Shown: positions 10,289 through 20,318 of the stretch, one piece after another
Layout: each line of letters begins with the position of its first letter
Position numbering within the stretch: position 1 is the stretch's first letter
Source of the DNA: Bacteroidota bacterium
GTDB lineage: Bacteria > Bacteroidota > Bacteroidia > 2-12-FULL-35-15
Assembly (NCBI GenBank): GCA_040389865.1
Contig: JAZJZM010000014.1
Location: 39,531 to 103,530 of the forward strand
Length of the DNA stretch: 64,000 bases
Direction: 5' to 3'
Made by a program: the position numbers and the translations under genes
Notes under the pieces: model-generated
Told to the model about the DNA's origin: nothing
The model's input: the letters and a program-made list of their open reading frames with translations, nothing else
The model's database searches: none

Positions 10289-11596
10289 TTACTCCACCTC
10301 CATATAATCAAGATCCTTCCCATGTGTTTCATCCAGAAAAAATGTTGCCATAATGGCGAGTGGAATTACAACCCCACCCACGATCATTGCTGATTGTACT
10401 ATTCCTATACCCACCGACATATAATTCCACCATATTATCATCAATACCGTAGATCCCCTCACAAAATTAGGGACAGTGGTAGTAACGGTCGACCGGATAT
10501 TGGTACCGAACTGTTCGGAAGCCACCGTAACAAAAACGGCCCAATAGCCCATTGCTATTCCCATTACAAAAATGATGCTATAAAACAATTGGGGAGAAAC
10601 TCCTGAGGCTGCAAAAAACCAGGAACAGAATATTCCCAGGCAAACCAAGGCAATTACCAGGGCCTTTTTTCTTGACTTTAATTTTTGACTGATAAAACCG
10701 GTTAAAATACTTCCGAAAGCAGCACCAATATAATGAAACATAACAGATTTGCCCGTATTCACCGAACCCGTAACTCCAAGCGCTTCACCAAATTCTTTTG
10801 AAAAAGTGACCAGGATACCAACAGCAAACCAAACAGGAACACCTACAAATATGCAGCAGATATATTTGAAAAAACGTTTACCATTTTTAAATAAACCTAT
10901 AAAATCACCTCGTTTTACCGAAGATGTTTTCATTTTTTCAAACATTCCCGATTCATGAATATAAACGCGCAACAAAAGCAATACTAATCCGAGTCCTCCT
11001 CCAACCCAATAGGCTTCTCTCCAGCCCCATTCGGCCATATAAAAAGCCAATACAGCGCCCAGTATCCCTATACCCGAAACAATACTGGTGCCCCATGCAC
11101 GCGTTTCCTTTGTCATTACTTCCGAAACAAGCGTAACCCCTATCCCCAATTCACCGGCAAGACCAAAGCCTGCTATCACACGCAGCCAGGCGTATTGATT
11201 AAGATTTTGAACAAAACCATTTGCAATATTTGCCAGCGAATAAAGTAAAATAGTAAGAAAAAGTGTAGATAATCGTCCTTTTTTATCACCTAAAACTCCC
11301 CAAGCAATTCCACCAAGAAGCATGCCTATCATTTGCATATTAATAAGGAAAATACCGGAATCTTTAATTTGGTCGGCCGGGATCCCGATCGCCTGTAAGC
11401 TCGGAACCCGAACAATACTAAATAGAATTAGATCATAAATATCAACAAAGTAACCAAGGGCGGCTATAATAACCACTATGTTGAAAGGATTGCTGCTTCC
11501 GTTTTTAAGCATAAAGCTATTTTTTGAGTGCTTAAATGTAATAATAAAAAGTCCTCTTTTTCTGAAATTTAATTTGGGTTTCAGGCACCTGTTCAT
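10289..11596 (-). CDS. MFS transporter
   Basis: 435 aa, about 12 predicted TM segments, 'GVLGDKKGR' MFS motif-like loop. Confidence 0.8.
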   Translation of the reverse strand: MNRCLKPKLNFRKRGLFIITFKHSKNSFMLKNGSSNPFNIVVIIAALGYFVDIYDLILFSIVRVPSLQAIGIPADQIKDSGIFLINMQMIGMLLGGIAWGVLGDKKGRLSTLFLTILLYSLANIANGFVQNLNQYAWLRVIAGFGLAGELGIGVTLVSEVMTKETRAWGTSIVSGIGILGAVLAFYMAEWGWREAYWVGGGLGLVLLLLRVYIHESGMFEKMKTSSVKRGDFIGLFKNGKRFFKYICCIFVGVPVWFAVGILVTFSKEFGEALGVTGSVNTGKSVMFHYIGAAFGSILTGFISQKLKSRKKALVIALVCLGIFCSWFFAASGVSPQLFYSIIFVMGIAMGYWAVFVTVASEQFGTNIRSTVTTTVPNFVRGSTVLMIIWWNYMSVGIGIVQSAMIVGGVVIPLAIMATFFLDETHGKDLDYMEVE

Positions 11597-11685
11597 ACAT
11601 TGTTAATTAAAATTTGTAACGCTTCCTGCTTTTGTTCGTACTAAGTTATATTCCGCTTAAGTCTTAACCTCTAAAACTTACCGCC

Positions 11686-11982
11686 ATGATGAACACTACT
11701 TATACAAATGGGCCTCTCTCAGTTGAAAAAGAGAATATTCGTTCTTTAAGATTTCCGGCCAATGAAGTTTTAACATCAGCGGATGAAATTAAGATCAGGT
11801 ACTCCGATCTGGAAAGAGCTTTGAAACTTGGTAATCTGGAGCACAATAAAATCAAGATCGTGTTTGAAGATGAGCATGGTTTAAAACAAGTAGAAACCAC
11901 TGTTTGGGGAGTAACCGACAAACGGGTGATATTAAAACAAGGAGTTCTTATTCCAATCCACCGAATACACGAGATCAGGTAA
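11686..11982 (+). CDS. hypothetical protein
   Basis: 98-aa ORF with normal composition and no recognisable motif. Confidence 0.35.
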   Translation: MMNTTYTNGPLSVEKENIRSLRFPANEVLTSADEIKIRYSDLERALKLGNLEHNKIKIVFEDEHGLKQVETTVWGVTDKRVILKQGVLIPIHRIHEIR

Positions 11983-12140
11983 TTTTCCACTATTAGATAC
12001 AAAACAACAACCCGAATTGCCTTTATGGTCATTTGATTACAAAACCATGTCTTTGCAGGAAGGAAACGGGCCTAGTTAGGAAATAATTTTTATTTTAAAA
12101 GGGAATTTAAATTTTAATTAAAAAAGTTATACACATTATT

Positions 12141-12178
12141 TGTTAGCAACAAGTATTTTTATACCTTTGCCGACAAAT
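12141..12178 (+). promoter_or_regulatory. putative Bacteroidetes sigma-A promoter (-7 'TAccTTTG') upstream of phasin-like gene 1
   Basis: 'tgttagcaacaagtatttttaTACCTTTGccgacaaat'. A near-identical block lies upstream of the second paralog at 13042-13078. Confidence 0.5.
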
Positions 12179-12230
12179 ATCGATTATTAGTCATAATTTA
12201 TATAGGTTTAATCTAACTAAAACAAAAAAA

Positions 12231-12821
12231 ATGAATAGCACATTAAACGAAAAGTCAGAAAAAATAAAGAACAGTATTAAAGGTACTGCTGAGAAATCGA
12301 AAGAAACAATAAGAGAGATCATTGACTCTAACACAAAACACATTGGAGAGGCTTTGAATTCCAACAAAAAAATTGTTGATTCAATAAAAGAAAAATTTAA
12401 TCAGCAAGAAATGGACGACTCTGTTACAGATACATTGAAAAGCACTTTTGGAAAATCAGTGGAGCTTGCAGAAGACGCCCTTGACAGCATTATAAATTCA
12501 TACACACGACAAATGGAAATGAATGTAGACTTCAACACCAAGTTGGTTGATGCTCTTAAAGAATCAAACACTGCTCATCCCGAAAAAGTGTTGGAACTAA
12601 TTCACGAAAATTTTGAAGCGTCACACCAGTTGACCATCAGAAACACAAAAGAAATACTTGATTTCTACAATAAGCACACCAACCTGGCTGTAAATTTCAA
12701 TCAGAAATTTGGAGAAAGCATAAATGCTCAAATAGAATCACTTTTTAATCTTCAGAACAAAGGCTTGAATAAATTTACAAATTGGGCTTCTGAATGGTGG
12801 AAACAGGAAAGTAAAAAATAA
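12231..12821 (+). CDS. all-helical K/E-rich protein, putative phasin (PHA granule-associated) paralog A
   Basis: 196 aa of low-complexity amphipathic helix. About 90% identical to ORF 14012-14617. Lies 2.5 kb upstream of phaC. Confidence 0.6.
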   Translation: MNSTLNEKSEKIKNSIKGTAEKSKETIREIIDSNTKHIGEALNSNKKIVDSIKEKFNQQEMDDSVTDTLKSTFGKSVELAEDALDSIINSYTRQMEMNVDFNTKLVDALKESNTAHPEKVLELIHENFEASHQLTIRNTKEILDFYNKHTNLAVNFNQKFGESINAQIESLFNLQNKGLNKFTNWASEWWKQESKK

Positions 12822-13041
12822 GGCATACAACACTTAATTTGCAGATTTAAATCCCCCTTTCAAGAAGGACAAGAAATAAAACACGCACGCTAATGATTTT
12901 GTTATCAGCCAATTAAAACTAAAAAGCTGAATTAAAACGATATATTTTTATTCGAATTAATTCAGTTTTTTTTATGTTTTAACAAAGAGCCGCATTTAGT
13001 AAAATTATTTGAAAATAGTATTAAAAGTTATAAACATCGTC

Positions 13042-13078
13042 TGTTAGTAAGATATATGTCTTACCTTTGCGGACAAAT
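13042..13078 (+). promoter_or_regulatory. putative promoter (-7 'TAccTTTG') upstream of phasin-like gene 2
   Basis: 'tgttagtaagatatatgtctTACCTTTGcggacaaat', conserved with the 12141-12178 block. Confidence 0.5.
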
Positions 13079-13101
13079 TAATCAAAAAAAAACCAAAAAA
13101 A

Positions 13102-13854
13102 ATGATAACAGAAAAATTCACTGATGCAACAGAAACATTCAAAAAGAATGTAAGCGAAACAATGAAATGGTTACAGGATACCACTGCAACGATCATTGAA
13201 ACTCAAAACAAACAAATGAAATCTGCAAGTGATATTTATAATAAAACTATGAATACTGCATTCGCGGGAATCAACAAAGATAATTTCAGTAGTTCATTCG
13301 GAGTTTCAGAAAAAGTTGCTGAAATTTTGCAAAAAAATATTGAAACGATCACCAATATGTCAAAAACTACAATGAAAACTGCAATGGATTTTGGTAAACA
13401 AGCCAGTTCAGAAACATTTTCAAAAGATTCAACAACAAAAATTGTTGATTCATACAAAAAGCAAGTAGAAGAGATTACTGCTTACAATAAAAAATCATTT
13501 GAGTCATTAACAAAGGAGTGGGATGTTACAAAAACAACTACTGCTGAATGGACTGCAAAATGGAAAAAAGAATTTGAAACTACTGTTGCAACTTCTAAAG
13601 AAAAAATCCAGTCAATTGTTGATTCATATACCAAAGTTGCTACGCCTTCTGTTGAAACCAACAAAGAATTGTTCAACAAATTGAATGACCAAATGAACAC
13701 TAATTTTAATACTAATTTAAAATTTTGGTCAGATCTAACAAATTCTTACAACACAAAAGGGTTTGAAACAAAAAATGTTGTAGATTTTTTCAAAAACAAC
13801 ACTTTCACCGGGACAAACGGAACTAAAAAACAAACAACTACTGCGAATAATTAA
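13102..13854 (+). CDS. all-helical T/K/E-rich protein, putative phasin-like protein B
   Basis: 250 aa, repeated 'KxxxExxT' helical periodicity, same promoter block as neighbour A. Confidence 0.55.
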   Translation: MITEKFTDATETFKKNVSETMKWLQDTTATIIETQNKQMKSASDIYNKTMNTAFAGINKDNFSSSFGVSEKVAEILQKNIETITNMSKTTMKTAMDFGKQASSETFSKDSTTKIVDSYKKQVEEITAYNKKSFESLTKEWDVTKTTTAEWTAKWKKEFETTVATSKEKIQSIVDSYTKVATPSVETNKELFNKLNDQMNTNFNTNLKFWSDLTNSYNTKGFETKNVVDFFKNNTFTGTNGTKKQTTTANN

Positions 13855-14011
13855 TAGGCACAATTAAACAATTTTGCAATTTTTCAGTAGGCAATAAGGA
13901 TATGTTAAATTACATAATTGCCTACTGATTAATTGTAAAATTAAATAATTGCCTACTGAAAAATTGTTTTAAATTGCTCAATTAGGGTAAATAACCATAA
14001 ACACAGGTCAG

Positions 14012-14617
14012 ATGAACATCACATTAAATGAAAAAGCTGAAAAGATTAAAAGCAGCATTAAAGGAACTGCCGAAAAATCGAAAGAAACAATAAGAGAGAT
14101 CATTGTTTCAAACACAAAACACATTGGCGATGCGTTGGATTCTAATAAAAAAATAGTTGATTCGATCAAAGAAAAATTGAATCAGCAAGAAATCCAGGAT
14201 TCTGTTACTGACACGCTGAAAAGTACTTTTGGGAAATCAGTTGAATTAGCAGAAGATGCTCTTGATAGTATCATCAATTCATACACAAGACAAATGGAAA
14301 TGAATGTTGATTTTAACACAAAATTAGTTGACGCTCTTAAAGAATCTAATAGCGCTCAACCGGAAAAAGTGTTGGAATTAATTCACGAAAATTTTGAAGC
14401 ATCACACCAGTTAACGATTAGAAATACAAAAGAAATCCTTGATTTCTATAATAAACATACAAACCTTGCTGTGAATTTCAACGAAAAATTCGGAGCAAGT
14501 ATCAATGCTCAAATTGAATCACTATTTAATTTACAAAGCAAAGGTTTGAATAAATTTACAAACTGGGCTTCTGAATGGTGGAAACAAGAAAGTAAAGATA
14601 AAAAAGAGACCGTTTAA
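14012..14617 (+). CDS. putative phasin paralog A' (near-duplicate of 12231-12821)
   Basis: 201 aa, 'MNITLNEKAEKIKSSIKGTAEKSKETIREII...' aligns almost residue-for-residue with paralog A. Confidence 0.6.
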   Translation: MNITLNEKAEKIKSSIKGTAEKSKETIREIIVSNTKHIGDALDSNKKIVDSIKEKLNQQEIQDSVTDTLKSTFGKSVELAEDALDSIINSYTRQMEMNVDFNTKLVDALKESNSAQPEKVLELIHENFEASHQLTIRNTKEILDFYNKHTNLAVNFNEKFGASINAQIESLFNLQSKGLNKFTNWASEWWKQESKDKKETV

Positions 14618-14754
14618 TTTAAACCGAAAAATGAGAGTTTCAGGTTTCAGGTTCTGTGTTAAACAAACTTGAAATTTGAAACTTTTTTAAAATTTGAACA
14701 CATTTCTTATATTTTAAGGTCATTTATAGTAGTTAAACTCAAAAATCCAAAAAT

Positions 14755-15231
14755 ATGACTAACACTTACAAATCAAAAAGCAAGAACAGTATTTTATGGT
14801 TATTAAGCACTGCTACAGTGTGTTTATTAGCAGTATCGAACAGCGCTTACGCTCAAAAAAAACCAGCACCTGATAAGCTTTTGGCCGGAAAAATTTATAC
14901 AATTGAACTGGCTGAACAAGGAAAAAAAGCGGGTGACCCTGAACCGGATGAACTAACTTTTAAATCAGATAAGTTTACATCAAAAGTAATGAAACTCGAT
15001 GAAAAATTCCTTCCTTCGGCTTATACTGCCGAACTTGATACTTCTGATGCAGCTAACAAAATAATTACTTTTGAAACTGAAAGTAAAAACCCGGGTGAAG
15101 AACTTTTAAAATGGACAGGCACTATTACCGGAGAAGAAATTGAAGGTACTGCTGTATGGACAAATAAAAAAGGTAAACTGAAAAGAGAATACACTTTTAC
15201 CGGCACCTTAAAAGGTAAAAAGAAGAAATAA
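14755..15231 (+). CDS. secreted hypothetical protein
   Basis: Signal peptide 'LLSTATVCLLAVSNSAYAQ'. 158 aa, Lys-rich. Confidence 0.5.
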   Translation: MTNTYKSKSKNSILWLLSTATVCLLAVSNSAYAQKKPAPDKLLAGKIYTIELAEQGKKAGDPEPDELTFKSDKFTSKVMKLDEKFLPSAYTAELDTSDAANKIITFETESKNPGEELLKWTGTITGEEIEGTAVWTNKKGKLKREYTFTGTLKGKKKK

Positions 15232-15239
15232 AAATAAAA

Positions 15240-15280
15240 AGCCCCTCCCATCCTCCCCGAAGGGAGGGGTTTGTGTTTAC
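15240..15280 (+). terminator. intrinsic terminator
   Basis: 'cccctccc atcctccccgaa gggagggg' followed by 'tttgtgttt'. Confidence 0.6.
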
Positions 15281-15331
15281 ACCGGTATATAATCCAGGTT
15301 TTGTGTATTACCAACCCCTACTTTGGAGTAG

Positions 15332-16363
15332 TTGAGTGGGGCTTCTTTTATCAATTATCAAATGAGCGCAGCAAAAAAAAAGATCATTCGTAATGTAAAA
15401 ATTTCAGGCACCGGCTCTTATGCGCCTTCCGGAGTTTATACAAATGAATATCTTGAAACCATTGTAGATACTAAAGCTCCATGGATTTATGAAAACCTGG
15501 GTATCAAACAACGACATATTGTTGCAAAAGGAGAAACCACATCTGACCTTGGTGCAAAAGCAGCTCTCAAAGCCATTGCTGATGCTAAACTTAGCCCGGA
15601 AGACATTGACCTCATCATTTTTGCCACTACCACGCCTGATATGAAGGCGCCCTCCACAGCTTGTTTTGTTCAGGAAAAAATAGGCGCTTTTAATGCCGGA
15701 GCCTTTGATGTGGTAGCGGTTTGTACCGGTTTTTTATATGCGATAAGTCTGGCAACGGATTGTTTAAGCAATGGAAATTACAAACATATCCTTGTAATAG
15801 GAGCTGATACTTTTTCAACAATAACCGATTGGACGCGCAGAGATGCTGTGTTTTTTGGTGATGGTGCAGGAGCTGTTGTTCTTTCCCGTGTAGATGATGA
15901 ATCAGGTTTTGTTATTTCCAAAGTAGGTGCTGACGGACGTGGAAAGATGATCTGGCACATCCCTGCCGGTGGATCACAACACCCGATTGATGAAAACACA
16001 GCAAAAGACCGTTTGCAATATTGGCAAATGGATGGAAAAGGAATATACAACACCGCTGTGCGCGTATTACCACAGGTTATTACAGAAGTATTAGCCGATT
16101 CTGGATTAAAAATGGATGATATCAAATACATGATCCCTCATCAGCCAAGTCTTAAGATCCTTAAGAAAACTGCCGAACTTATAAATTTTGATTTTGATAA
16201 AGTATTGACCAATATGGATCAATACGGAAATACTTCTGCAGCATCTATTCCAATTTTATTGGATGAGACCAATAAAGCCGGAAAGTTAACCCGTGGCGAT
16301 ACCTTATTATTTGCCGCTGTTGGGTCTGGAATGGCTTGGGGTGCAATGATATTAAAATGGTAG
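15332..16363 (+). CDS. KAS-III (FabH)-like condensing enzyme
   Basis: Cys block 'DVVAVCTGFLYAISLA', His block 'IPHQPS', Asn block 'YGNTSAAS', giving an intact Cys-His-Asn triad. Its stop TAG abuts the phaC ATG. Confidence 0.8.
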   Translation: MSGASFINYQMSAAKKKIIRNVKISGTGSYAPSGVYTNEYLETIVDTKAPWIYENLGIKQRHIVAKGETTSDLGAKAALKAIADAKLSPEDIDLIIFATTTPDMKAPSTACFVQEKIGAFNAGAFDVVAVCTGFLYAISLATDCLSNGNYKHILVIGADTFSTITDWTRRDAVFFGDGAGAVVLSRVDDESGFVISKVGADGRGKMIWHIPAGGSQHPIDENTAKDRLQYWQMDGKGIYNTAVRVLPQVITEVLADSGLKMDDIKYMIPHQPSLKILKKTAELINFDFDKVLTNMDQYGNTSAASIPILLDETNKAGKLTRGDTLLFAAVGSGMAWGAMILKW

Positions 16364-18292
16364 ATGAAGAAAACTGAAATAAAAAACACTACAAAAATGA
16401 AGAGCAAGCCGAAAAGTCCGAAGTCTGAAATGAAAACTGAAAACACTAAAAAAACAGAAAAAGCTAAAACAACGGAAAATACTAAAAATACAGAAAAAAC
16501 CGAAAAAACAAAAATGGAAGAATTAACAGAGAGTATCACAAAAGCAAGTCAGAAAATTATTCAAAATTATTTTGAAAATAAATCAGGCGGTAACCATGAT
16601 AACAGGGATATAGCTCATACATTTGGTGAGTTAGGTACCAAATTAATGAACGAGCCCAAAGAAATGGAGAAAGTTCAGGAACTATACAAGGGATTCTTTA
16701 ACAGTCAGCAGGAATTATGGAAACGAATTACTGATCGCCAATCTAAACCGGAAGAATATAGTCCGGTTATTCAACCTGCCGAAGGTGATAAACGTTTTAA
16801 AGCACCTGAATGGGATGAAGCACCGTATTACTTTGATTTTGTTAAGCAAAATTACTTATTGGTTTCTCAATTAATGAAACAGATCATTGCTACTTCTGAA
16901 ATAGATGAAAAAGTTAAAAAGAAATTGAACTTTTATTCTCAACAGTATATTGATATGCTTTCGCCATCCAATTTTATTGCAACAAACCCTGAAGCAATTA
17001 AATTAGCACAGGAAACCAATGGTCAGAGTTTAATTGACGGATTTAAAAACTTATTGACCGATATCGAAAAAGGTGGTATCACTCAAACGGACATGTCAGC
17101 ATTTGAAGCTGGTAAGAATATAGCAACCACGCCTGGTGCAGTCGTTTTTGAAAATGAATTGATGCAACTTATTCAATACACCCCTTCTACTAAAAATGTG
17201 TTTGAAACACCTGTAGTAATAATACCACCTTGGATCAACAAATATTATATTCTTGATTTGCGTCCTGAAAATTCTTTTGCAAAATTTGTGGTGGATCAAG
17301 GATTTACAACCTTTATCATTTCCTGGAAAAATCCAAGTGCGGACTTACGTCACATCACTTTTGATGATTATGTGGAGATGGCTGCTTTAAAGGCTTTTGA
17401 AGTTGCAAAAACAATTACGAAATCTAAAAAAGTAAATACTATTGGATATTGTTTAGGTGGAACGTTGCTTAGCACTTCACTTGCTGTACTTGCTGCTCGT
17501 GAAAAAACAGAGGAAAACCCTGTTAACACTGCAACATTCCTTGCCACAATGATCGACTTTTCGGATGTTGGCCCAATGGGTGATGTTATTGACAATGCCT
17601 TATTAAAAAAACTAGAACGTGGCGAATTACTAGAGCAAGGCGTTATGCATGGTCATGATATGGAAAAAGCTTTCAATCTGATCAGAGCAAATGACCTGGT
17701 ATGGAGCTTTGTAATAAATAATTATTTGAAAGGCAAAACACCTACTCCTTTTGATGTTCTTTATTGGACAAATGATAATACGAATTTACCTGCAAAAATG
17801 TATTTGTATTATTTGAGATACATGGTTTTGGAAAATAAATTAAGCAGAAAAAATGCGTTGCGTATTTGTAATACCCCTATTGATATTGGCAAGATAGACA
17901 TTCCTGTTTACGTAATTGGCCTTCAGGAAGACCATATCGCACCACCACAAACAACATTTACAACAACAGAGCTTGTTAGTGGACCGGTTGAATTTATACT
18001 TGGCGGATCTGGTCACGTAATGGGTGTTGCTAATCCTCCATCAAAAAAGAAATATGGTTATTATTTAGATGGTAAACTGGAAAATGGATTTGCTGCATGG
18101 AAAGACTCTGCTAAATTTCACGAAGGTAGCTGGTGGACTGCATGGACAGAACGTCTTGCAAAAAAATCAGGAAAACAAATTGTAGCTGCTAAAACGTTGG
18201 GTAATGCTAAATTCAAAGTTATAGAAGCTGCTCCGGGCAGATATGTAAAAGAAAAATGTGCTCCGCACCATCCAGAAAATGGTAAGCATTAA
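16364..18292 (+). CDS. phaC: class-I poly(3-hydroxyalkanoate) synthase
   Basis: Lipase-box 'GYCLGGTLL' and alpha/beta-hydrolase core. 642 aa with a roughly 50-aa 'KTEK/TENTK' Lys-rich N-terminal extension. Confidence 0.85.
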   Translation: MKKTEIKNTTKMKSKPKSPKSEMKTENTKKTEKAKTTENTKNTEKTEKTKMEELTESITKASQKIIQNYFENKSGGNHDNRDIAHTFGELGTKLMNEPKEMEKVQELYKGFFNSQQELWKRITDRQSKPEEYSPVIQPAEGDKRFKAPEWDEAPYYFDFVKQNYLLVSQLMKQIIATSEIDEKVKKKLNFYSQQYIDMLSPSNFIATNPEAIKLAQETNGQSLIDGFKNLLTDIEKGGITQTDMSAFEAGKNIATTPGAVVFENELMQLIQYTPSTKNVFETPVVIIPPWINKYYILDLRPENSFAKFVVDQGFTTFIISWKNPSADLRHITFDDYVEMAALKAFEVAKTITKSKKVNTIGYCLGGTLLSTSLAVLAAREKTEENPVNTATFLATMIDFSDVGPMGDVIDNALLKKLERGELLEQGVMHGHDMEKAFNLIRANDLVWSFVINNYLKGKTPTPFDVLYWTNDNTNLPAKMYLYYLRYMVLENKLSRKNALRICNTPIDIGKIDIPVYVIGLQEDHIAPPQTTFTTTELVSGPVEFILGGSGHVMGVANPPSKKKYGYYLDGKLENGFAAWKDSAKFHEGSWWTAWTERLAKKSGKQIVAAKTLGNAKFKVIEAAPGRYVKEKCAPHHPENGKH

Positions 18293-19491
18293 TTGGAATA
18301 ACCATTAGATTTCAATATTAGTTTTGATCGTTAAAATTGAAGTTTCAGGTTTTTATGTTTGGTAACAAACATAAAAATCTGAAACTTTTTTTATTATTAA
18401 ACTGTGCTATAAATTCTTAAAACATCTTTTGAGCTTGAGTTCAATCAATAAAATAAAATTGAAAAAAGAATTTTTATTTTGACGTTTCCCTTTCTTGAAG
18501 AAATAAAAAGAGTGGCTCGGCCAAACTGTCAATACCTTCGTGTAATGTGGCTGCAGCCCATTTTGGTCTCATTGCCGTCTTGCTTTAGGACTTTAATCAT
18601 AACAAATTAGATAATTTTCGCTAACTTTACTATGTGAAAAAATTTGCTTACATATTTATTCTATTATCATGTTTTGGGTTTAGATCCATGCATGCAGAAT
18701 CTGTGCAAATGTTCAAGGCAAAGTACAGCTCTGAATTAAATAGATCTGAAAAAAAACATATTCAGAAGACTCCCGCGCTTTCATTAAGTATAATTACTTC
18801 GAAAGAGTCGGACGAAAATCCATTTTCAAAAAAAAGAAAGAGAGCAAAAAAAGGCCTATCACCAATCTTTTTTTGTCTTACAGATCAACCCCATTTAAAA
18901 ATTATTTTTTTTGAAATTGACTTAGTTTATGCTCCCCAGTCATTTCATTTCTCACACCTTCATTACGCCTGTGGTGAACGTGGTCCGCCCACCATTTCCC
19001 TTTCTTAAAACCCCACATTTTATTTATTCATTTTAGAACATAGCGCTATGCGTTTGTTCCGCCAACAATTTTAATCATGAAAAGCTGGAAAGTTGTCATA
19101 TACTATTTCGGAGATACACTCGAAGTAATAATCGAAGCAAGATCTTATGCTGAGGCCTGTTTCTCAGCAGAGCGGATCTATTCAGGTTGCACTATTAACG
19201 AAATTTCCGAGATCAAATATTAAAAAAAAATCCATTTTTTTTACCGAGACTAACAACATCACCTTTGGGATATGTTGGTTTTCTGTATGTAACAATTTGG
19301 AAAATAAGGGTTCACTATTGAAAAAACAGAGCATTAATTTTAATAAAAAATTAAAATCAGGCCTATACACAAACAGCATAAAACCATTGACATTAGACTG
19401 TTTCACTCATATATGTAATTAAAAAAAAAGCCCTCCTGAACATTAAAGATCTAATAGGGAATATTTTTTTATGATTCATATACGCAATTCG

Positions 19492-19499
19492 TATATTTG
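19492..19499 (+). promoter_or_regulatory. candidate -7 element 'TATATTTG' upstream of phaB, adjacent to the 'atacg-n5-cgtat' inverted repeat
   Basis: 'atacgcaattcgtatatttgtcatcg' lies about 55 bp upstream of the ATG at 19551. Confidence 0.35.
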
Positions 19500-19550
19500 T
19501 CATCGATTTAAAATTTAGAATTTAATCTTTAGACTTTTTCAATATATTTT

Positions 19551-20318
19551 ATGAGAGAAAAAAATAACAAAGTTGCATTGGTTACAGGCGGTACAGGTGG
19601 TATGGGTACTGCAATATGCGAAAGATTATATAAAGATGGATATACAGTAGTTGCCAATTACAAAGATTTTACCAAGGCGATGAAATGGAGAGAAGAAGCA
19701 AAAAAATGGCGTGATGACCAACTTAAAATGGGTTTTGATTTGAAAATTGTTCAAGGAGATATTTCAAATTGGAAATCTGCCGAAAAGATGATGAAGCAGA
19801 TCAATGATGAAGTTGGACAAGTGGATGTTTTGATAAATAATGCCGGTATAACAAGAGATTCAGCGCTTCATAAAATGAGCCCTGAGCAATGGTATGAAGT
19901 TATTGATACCAACCTTAACAGTGTATTTATTTGCACTCGCCTTGTAATTGAAGGTATGATAGCAAAAGGATGGGGACGTATTGTAAGTATCTCTTCTGTG
20001 AACGGACAAAAAGGACAATTCGGACAAACAAATTATGCTGCAACTAAAGCAGCTATGTATGGTTTCTCCAAATCACTTGCTTTGGAAGTTGCTAAAAAAG
20101 GTATTACTGTAAATACGGTTTCTCCGGGATATGTTGGCACTGCTATGGTAATGGCTATAAAAGAAGAAATACGTGATAAGATCATCGCTCAGGTACCACA
20201 AGGGCGCTTAGGTTCACCGGAAGAGATTGCAGGTGCTGTGGCTTATTTAACATCTGAGGAAGGACGTTATATTACAGGTGCCAATATTGCTATCAATGGT
20301 GGGTTGCATATGTTCTAA
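19551..20318 (+). CDS. phaB: SDR-family acetoacetyl-CoA reductase
   Basis: 'VALVTGGTGGMGTAI' Rossmann motif, 'NNAGIT', catalytic 'YAATKAA'. 255 aa with pha-locus context. Confidence 0.8.
   Translation: MREKNNKVALVTGGTGGMGTAICERLYKDGYTVVANYKDFTKAMKWREEAKKWRDDQLKMGFDLKIVQGDISNWKSAEKMMKQINDEVGQVDVLINNAGITRDSALHKMSPEQWYEVIDTNLNSVFICTRLVIEGMIAKGWGRIVSISSVNGQKGQFGQTNYAATKAAMYGFSKSLALEVAKKGITVNTVSPGYVGTAMVMAIKEEIRDKIIAQVPQGRLGSPEEIAGAVAYLTSEEGRYITGANIAINGGLHMF

Follow-up and report, generated by a model that had tools for sequence, protein, structure and literature searches.

Do three small helical proteins encoded just upstream of polyhydroxyalkanoate (PHA) synthesis genes in a Bacteroidota bacterium serve as phasins on the PHA granule? 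The question is raised by a 64-kb stretch of contig JAZJZM010000014.1 (the window; G+C 35.5%), in which three same-strand open reading frames (ORFs), here named P1, P2 and P3, precede the genes of a PHA synthase and an acetoacetyl-CoA reductase. Much is known of how Proteobacteria and Bacillota store PHA, but hardly anything of how it is done by Bacteroidota, a phylum abundant in soils, lakes and the sludge of wastewater plants. An initial annotation, made from the sequence alone, had called the three proteins putative phasins and phasins essentially undescribed in this phylum; the latter remark agrees with our literature search, in which no description of a Bacteroidota phasin was found. The answer that we favor, with a probability of roughly 60%, is that P1, P2 and P3 are lineage-specific, sequence-orphan PHA-granule proteins, that is, functional phasins, expressed from strong promoters. 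The claim is that they work like phasins, not that they are Phasin_2 proteins, because membership in Phasin_2 was tested and did not hold. The phasin reading is plausible and is based on gene context, not homology. The genes concerned are as follows.

12231..12821, + strand: P1, 196 amino acids (aa), with four long helices of amphipathic character; belongs to an unnamed family of Bacteroidia; the extra upstream copy, specific to the window's clade
13102..13854, + strand: P2, 250 aa; T/K/N-rich and helical; distant paralog of P1; first gene of the ancestral P2-P1-phaC-phaB cluster
14012..14617, + strand: P3, 201 aa; by position the ortholog of the P1-type gene that precedes phaC in other genomes; without the box and -7 block described below
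16364..18292, + strand: PhaC, class I PHA synthase (TIGR01838, 667 bits); the context gene that anchors the functional assignment
19551..20318, + strand: PhaB, acetoacetyl-CoA reductase (TIGR01829, 357 bits); context gene

Three paralogs and their place upstream of phaC

The three ORFs lie where the initial annotation had placed them, and the paralogy that it proposed is borne out for all of them. P1 and P3, estimated there to be about 90% identical, share 93% of their protein and 84.6% of their DNA sequence. With 0.037 nonsynonymous (dN) and 1.59 synonymous (dS) substitutions per site (dN/dS 0.023), the pair stems from an early duplication, and strong purifying selection has acted on each of the two copies. 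P2 is 24% identical to P1 (BLASTP, E 1e-6), the two families align by hhalign with a probability of 91.6% (E 8e-7, 178 columns), and their hidden Markov models (HMMs) match each other reciprocally at ~1e-13, so that P2 is clearly a true distant paralog of P1 and P3. The description of the proteins as K/E-rich holds for P1 and P3 (K 12%, N 11%, E 11%) but not for P2, which is T/K/N-rich and basic (pI 8.9). No further P1- or P2-type copy occurs elsewhere in the window. Judged by sequence, all three are small, cytosolic, amphipathic and wholly helical members of a single superfamily that is specific to Bacteroidia.

These properties are those by which a functional phasin is recognized, namely a small, non-enzymatic, amphipathic alpha-helical protein: P1, P2 and P3 are 196-250 aa long with 4-5 helices, and no enzyme domain was found in them with Pfam or NCBIfam. 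The AlphaFold2 models have four long helices for P1 and five for P2. The helical hydrophobic moment of the three proteins is 6-7 standard deviations above that of shuffled sequences (z = 6.0-7.3), and their grand average of hydropathy (GRAVY) is about -0.8, reflecting a hydrophilic, K/N/E/T-rich composition.

Gene context was analyzed in 55 loci, one genome per species, all of them metagenome-assembled genomes (MAGs), in which ORFs were compared by tblastn and HMM. In all 30 loci that carry phaC, a P1-type gene lies immediately upstream of phaC-phaB on the same strand. The position 5' of the pha genes, which the initial annotation had taken as support for phasins, is thus linked to PHA synthesis more strongly than could be known from the window, and conserved linkage of this kind is a mark of phasins as a class. 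The exact order P2-P1-phaC-phaB is present in 18 of the 30 loci, and the same type of arrangement is seen on an independent metagenome contig. The window's clade (L001, L002, L003 and L007) has the order P1-P2-P1-...-phaC-phaB; by this cross-locus comparison, P3 is the positional ortholog of the ancestral P1-type gene and the window's P1 the added copy. Across loci, P1 identity ranges from 48 to 95% and tracks that of PhaC (54-98%), whereas P2 falls to 27-43% and diverges about twice as fast. The gene order is maintained from 95% down to 48% P1 identity.

In the model that we propose, the polymer would be made by PhaB together with the class I PhaC, and the hydrophobic granule surface would be coated by the amphipathic helices of P2 and P1/P3. 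The P1 type would probably also contact or activate the synthase, because it is as conserved as PhaC and always adjoins it. High expression would be favored by an A-rich leader and by a sigma-A promoter made up of the -7 element TACCTTTG, a -33 region with TTG/TGTTAG and, further 5', the box AAAGTTAT.AACA.

The conservation of P1 raises an alternative, in which the P1 type is a dedicated PhaC partner (an activator, scaffold or regulatory subunit like PhaM, PhaE or class IV PhaR) and only P2 is phasin-like. Those proteins are likewise small, helical and encoded beside the synthase, and P1 conservation tracks the synthase, as noted above, with the low dN/dS and with two motifs, YNKHTNLA.NFN.KF and WASEWWK, that are invariant in the P1 family. 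However, no similarity to the PhaE, PhaM or PhaR families was listed at E <= 1, the synthase here is of class I, which normally needs no second subunit, and P1 has no basic DNA-binding tail, a K-rich tail being present on PhaC itself. The P1-type gene is always the one adjacent to phaC in the loci compared, but the window has a terminator and two further genes between P3 and phaC. One P1-type paralog starts 24 nt after the end of a receiver-domain gene in a LytTR-rich locus (L064:7516-8597, JAURXZ010000016.1), and under the partner model such response-regulator-linked paralogs would tie granule formation to signaling; against this, the contexts of paralogs away from phaC vary, with signaling neighbors in only ~6 of 22. 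We consider a dedicated partner unlikely and prefer the phasin-like role for all three proteins.

Phasin families and other helical proteins

All relatives of P1 and P2 are unnamed or misnamed proteins from MAGs and metagenomes of uncultured Bacteroidia/Bacteroidota. The P1 family comprises 303-334 clusters at 90% identity, and the P2 family 37 close clusters and 165 representatives in an exhaustive profile search. The profile check proposed with the initial annotation was run, and the assignment to the Phasin_2 family failed it: every curated cut-off was missed, and the profile-profile probability was at most 2.7%. For the latter comparison, a PhaP1 sequence served only as a probe, with which eight genes annotated as phasins, C. 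necator phaP2 among them, were retrieved from plasmid records; this reference set is annotated as TIGR01841 phasins and is Burkholderiales-heavy, so that the comparison bears mainly on phasins close to these.

Some similarity to phasins nevertheless recurs below the thresholds. The phasin model TIGR01985 is the best NCBIfam match of P1, P2 and P3 alike (14-19 bits, sub-threshold). Phasin_2 was matched at E < 0.01 by 20 of 30 P2 relatives and by 2 of 29 P1 relatives. Among 106 remote P2 relatives, obtained by a P2-profile search of 1.84 billion representatives, it was the most frequent Pfam family, matched by 7 at E < 1e-4 (best 6e-6), compared with 3 for Apolipoprotein. This signal may be no more than the background level for long helical proteins, because coiled-coil matches in PHROGs and PADLOC are equally weak.

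Several results weigh against a phasin role and are gathered here. P2 scores below the Phasin_2 (PF09361) cut-off (21.8 versus 24.9 bits), P1 and P3 have no Pfam Phasin_2 match at E <= 1, and the TIGR01985 scores of the three proteins are 18.9, 17.2 and 14.4 bits against a cut-off of 99.7. The hhalign probabilities against the eight annotated phasins were 2.7% for the P2 family, 0.4% for the P1 family and 1.1% for a wide P2 alignment. Similarly weak matches were obtained to apolipoprotein, the ZorA tail, JetC and tape-measure coiled coils. Fold searches with the P1 and P2 models returned only generic or designed helical bundles, and the confidence of these predicted models is modest (mean pLDDT 67 and 55). 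Phasins are usually far less conserved than the P1 family. Of the 55 copies, 22 lie away from phaC, with up to six loci in one MAG; their neighbors vary, with response-regulator, LytTR or PP2C genes beside about six. The carriers of P1 and P2 are uncultured MAGs throughout. Finally, co-transcription with phaC is unlikely in the window because strong hairpins lie between the three genes themselves and between them and fabH-phaC.

The scattered copies have a parallel in Cupriavidus necator, which has several scattered phaP paralogs. P1-type paralogs beside response-regulator receiver, LytTR or PP2C/SpoIIE-like genes were seen in L014, L020, L024, L027, L038 and L039.

The same helical, hydrophilic character would also suit general amphipathic stress, desiccation or lipid-binding proteins (LEA-, YtxH- or apolipoprotein-like), with the pha adjacency being a lineage-specific accident. 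Apolipoprotein A1/A4/E was matched by 20 of the 30 P2 relatives (best E 2.6e-7), about as often as Phasin_2, and Perilipin_2 by three P2-family members; the copies not near phaC and the low GRAVY fit this explanation as well. However, chance linkage is implausible because the P2-P1-phaC-phaB order persists over the whole range of P1 identity given above. Window P2 scores 15.1 bits against Apolipoprotein A1/A4/E (PF01442), for which the cut-off is 90, and the best family member is also below the cut-off. Moreover, apolipoproteins and perilipin-type coats (PF01442, PF17316) themselves cover hydrophobic inclusions with amphipathic helical repeats like those of P2, so the similarity indicates the same physical role; since these are eukaryotic families and the scores are so low, the likeness is an analogy of physical design, not membership. 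An accidental neighborhood of general stress proteins is very unlikely in our estimate.

Other candidates were rejected. VitK2_biosynth was matched by 25 of 29 P1 relatives, with the C-terminal helices only, at ~16 bits and below the cut-off, and the proteins are too short for the MqnA/D fold; bpX0 was matched by 8 of 29, sub-threshold; and the PHROGs and PADLOC matches (tape measure, ZorA, JetC) are coiled-coil noise. A profile search with a broadened P1 alignment returned a closed family of 334 unnamed clusters with no bridge to a named family, and sequence profiles of the PDB gave designed helical proteins only.

Compared with Phasin_2/PhaP proteins (PF09361; TIGR01841, TIGR01985; PhaP1-PhaP7 of Cupriavidus necator), P1, P2 and P3 are alike in being ~20-27 kDa, non-catalytic, all-helical and amphipathic, in having pha-adjacent genes, several paralogs per genome and high-expression features, and in their recurrent sub-threshold profile similarity. 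They differ in that this similarity is sub-threshold throughout, with no profile-profile homology to annotated phasins, in being N/T/K-rich rather than A-rich and in being confined to uncultured Bacteroidia; the P1 type differs further in its unusual conservation and its Trp-rich C-terminus (WASEWWK). The three proteins likely represent a new, lineage-specific phasin-like family. If they do coat granules, this would be a new phasin sequence family, a better marker than phaC alone for PHA-storing Bacteroidia in metagenomes, and a source of novel amphipathic tags with which to engineer bioplastics or display proteins on granules.

The promoter block and its upstream box

The initial annotation had described a 38-bp promoter block shared by two of the upstream regions. 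The block is real, precedes P1 and P2 but not P3, and is ~57 bp long: the 38-nt segments are identical at 30 of 38 positions, and the similarity continues 5' to 12122 and 13023. Within the window, exact copies of the 17-mer TACCTTTGCSGACAAAT occur only at 12162-12178 and 13062-13078, and the pattern TGTTAGNAA-N10-14-TANNTTTG only at 12141-12169 and 13042-13069, with 0.01 occurrences expected. Its parts are as follows.

12123..12137, + strand: upstream promoter box of P1, AAAGTTATACACATT; a degenerate copy of AAAGTTATTAACAAT, 24 nt 5' of the -7 element
12140..12152, + strand: near-palindrome TTGTTAGCAACAA, spanning the P1 -33 region
12162..12178, + strand: P1 -7 element TACCTTTG (12162-12169) plus GCCGACAAAT (-5 to +5); predicted start ~12174-12175
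13024..13038, + strand: upstream promoter box of P2, AAAGTTATAAACATC
13042..13050, + strand: TGTTAGTAA, at the P2 -33 region; its register is shared with the distant loci L047 and L049
13062..13078, + strand: P2 -7 element TACCTTTG plus GCGGACAAAT; predicted start ~13074-13075

Sigma-70 promoter scans are inapplicable to this phylum; the block was compared with promoters of Bacteroidota. Their primary sigma (sigma-ABfr) promoters reportedly carry a -33 element TTTG and a -7 element TAnnTTTG (Bayley 2000; Chen 2007; Baez 2019). The presence of such a -7 element, as proposed in the initial annotation, was confirmed: TACCTTTG at 12162 and 13062 fits the revised consensus TAHHTTTG of Flavobacterium johnsoniae, in which the -7 element spans -12 to -5 (Baez 2019, PMC6847099). 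The -33 elements are TTTG at 12139-12142 for P1 (spacer 19) and TCTG at 13040-13043 for P2 (spacer 18). Both promoters therefore have the predicted sigma-ABfr layout, that is, TAHHTTTG before a gene with a TTG-type -33 element 18-21 nt upstream, and also its A-rich leader without a Shine-Dalgarno sequence. Beyond these known elements, the promoters of this family carry a further, highly conserved box, AAAGTTATTAACAAT, which occupies roughly -52 to -38 and precedes the -7 element by ~25 nt.

In a comparison of 18 promoters taken from related P1 and P2 genes of various lineages, the -7 element did not vary at all, and conservation was 83-100% at each specified position of the box AAAGTTAT.AACA. 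For the six positions that follow the -7 G it was only 38-55%. This bears on the conserved "CsGACAAAT" extension, which had been suggested as an operator: by the F. johnsoniae numbering the segment GCsGACAAAT lies at -5 to +5, so it would be the initiation region, and the operator interpretation of this extension was not upheld.

An operator for a PHA-specific regulator with a small regulon was considered more widely, at GCsGACAAAT or at GTTAnTAAC palindromes. The block is restricted to two promoters in the window, and it is ~79% identical between P1 and P2 although P1/P3 dS is ~1.6, which argues that it is under constraint. Pairs of GTTAnTAAC-like sites 7 bp apart are present in the window, L011, L047 and L049, the proximal site overlapping the -33 region, and a perfect palindrome, TTGTTAGTAACAA, occupies the P1-promoter position in L001, L002 and L007. 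This palindrome-like site over the -33 region, TGTTAG(T/C)AA(C), keeps its register in L047/L049, but it is lost in other lineages, the proximal TGTTAG being missing in several, including L008, L009, L013 and L017. In Proteobacteria, PhaR-type control couples phasin expression to PHA accumulation; here, no DNA-binding family (PhaR, PhaD or other) was found in the Pfam/NCBIfam scan of nine products between 11686 and 21914. A further point in favor of an operator is that P1/P2 genes are almost the only ones preceded by the composite motif in the genomes of this family.

In the family's own loci the box is indeed specific. The two window boxes, AAAGTTATACACATT and AAAGTTATAAACATC, have three mismatches each to the canonical 15-mer. 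In the 818 kb of loci there are 8 copies of the canonical 13-mer AAGTTATTAACAA, all of them before P1- or P2-type genes; in seven loci the gene concerned opens the phasin-like cluster, and in L011 it is a scattered copy. The box (<=3 mismatches) combined with the -7 element at a gap of 22-27 nt occurs 22 times in 882 kb, 21 of them before P1/P2 genes, compared with 1-2 at shifted spacing. Sites of AAAGTTATTAACAAT include L008:6000, L009:9001, L013:9076, L017:3403, L018:9036, L047:9040 and L049:9049.

Outside these genomes the picture is different. Among the matches listed from metagenomes and viromes (L068-L147 and L188-L265), the genes that follow the box and -7 element include dnaB, PHP-domain dnaE, mraZ, an IS1595 transposase and phage-like ORFs, and P1, P2 or PhaC is encoded by none of the 80 metagenome matches listed. 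The gap between box and -7 element is 25-26 nt in 59 of the 115 non-redundant matches listed (binomial p = 2e-7), the control being flat; on viral contigs the total was 78 versus 70 for the spacing control, so the counts are close and the signal is in the spacing distribution only. In the peak-spacing class the box is flanked by AA before and TT(G) after. Since the same box and spacing precede unrelated genes, the box would be a generic promoter module rather than a PHA regulon site. The idea that a motif search would define a regulon was thus not supported, given an outcome that the initial annotation had itself named as telling against it. We regard a PHA-specific operator as distinctly unlikely.

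Instead, the box has the look of a generic module, fixed in position, that lies upstream in promoters of Bacteroidota and of their phages, and it may be an undescribed UP-like element of their sigma-A promoters, in which case AAAGTTATTAACAAT would play for the Bacteroidota sigma-A polymerase the role of the UP element in E. coli. It is not mentioned in the promoter literature examined, including PMC6847099, and a full-text literature search with the box core sequence gave no bacterial-promoter paper among the matches listed, only primers and genome-editing oligonucleotides. The promoter block would thus be a compact, apparently strong promoter in a phylum whose promoters are still poorly defined, and the upstream box may be a general strength determinant for Bacteroidota promoters. 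A more far-reaching combination, a granule system found in Bacteroidia only in which the P1 type, with paralogs tied to response-regulator modules, is an obligatory partner or organizer of the class I synthase, P2 the true coat and AAAGTTATTAACAAT a phylum-wide UP-like element for sigma-A, has in our view a minor chance of being correct. A role of tandem box promoters in driving tRNA genes was ruled out, as no tRNAs were found.

Transcripts and neighboring genes

The transcripts of the three genes would be shaped by the following hairpins.

12921..12979, + strand: intrinsic-terminator-like hairpin followed by U8, after P1 (-18.9 kcal/mol, z -5.2)
13861..13966, + strand: long hairpin between P2 and P3, with arms 13861-13895 and 13917-13951 (-39 kcal/mol, z -7.4 for 13861-13951)
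14633..14692, + strand: intrinsic-terminator-like hairpin followed by U6, after P3 (-26.2 kcal/mol, z -5.3)

From this arrangement, P1 would seem to be transcribed alone, between a promoter and a terminator of its own. The hairpin between P2 and P3 has a second, 19-nt copy of its 3' arm at 13948-13966 (duplicating 13917-13933) and no clear U-run. It is kept at equivalent positions in L002, L005, L007, L006 and L003, with at least one compensatory change in L006 (CAGTAGGCAAT/ATTGCCTACTG versus GCAGCAGGCAAT/ATTGACTGCTGC), and it may serve to attenuate transcription, to terminate it in part or to stabilize the mRNA. P3 is probably transcribed by read-through of this hairpin or from its own weak promoter, for which a TAnnTTGY-like box at 13970-13977 is the candidate.

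The leaders of P1 and P2 have A-runs before the ATG and no Shine-Dalgarno sequence, with A at -3, -6, -12 and -13, positions at which A is a positive translation determinant in Flavobacterium johnsoniae (PMC6847099); such A-runs are described as a setting for strong initiation in this phylum. In many loci, the leaders of P1- and P2-type genes, scattered paralogs included, share a (T)TAATC that leads into an A-run, some 10-25 nt 5' of the ATG; the examples in the window are 12208-12230 and 13079-13101.

Between P3 and phaC lie two genes. The first (14755-15231) encodes a 158-aa protein with an apparent signal peptide at its start, judged by eye, and matches no known family; in the window's clade (L001-L010, L018, L041) its place, after the phasin-like genes and before fabH/phaC, is conserved. 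The second (15332-16363) encodes a FabH-like beta-ketoacyl-ACP synthase III (KASIII), and its stop abuts the phaC start at 16364. A phaA thiolase is absent from the pha cluster, and the FabH-like gene is found in only part of the related loci; a KASIII-type synthase may be the source of acetoacetyl-CoA at this locus.

The phaC-phaB gap is ~1.26 kb in the window (18293-19550) versus ~50-180 nt in most relatives. It starts with a terminator with a 20-bp stem (18342-18385) and otherwise holds short ORFs only, and phaB has its own TATATTTG box at 19492. PhaC has a K/T/E-rich N-terminal extension of 43 aa (16364-16492), for which the start codon is predicted and M51 is an alternative; a 598-aa PhaC relative without the extension is 76% identical from residue 44 onward. 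The extension recalls the basic tails of PhaM and PhaF, which are nucleoid-binding granule proteins.

A scan of 11500-19700 against Rfam gave no family, the terminator hairpins alone yielding chance miRNA-like matches. Directly upstream of the P1 promoter, a 98-aa ORF (11686-11982) has no family match in Pfam, NCBIfam, PHROGs or PADLOC and is 95-99% conserved in the two closest MAGs only.

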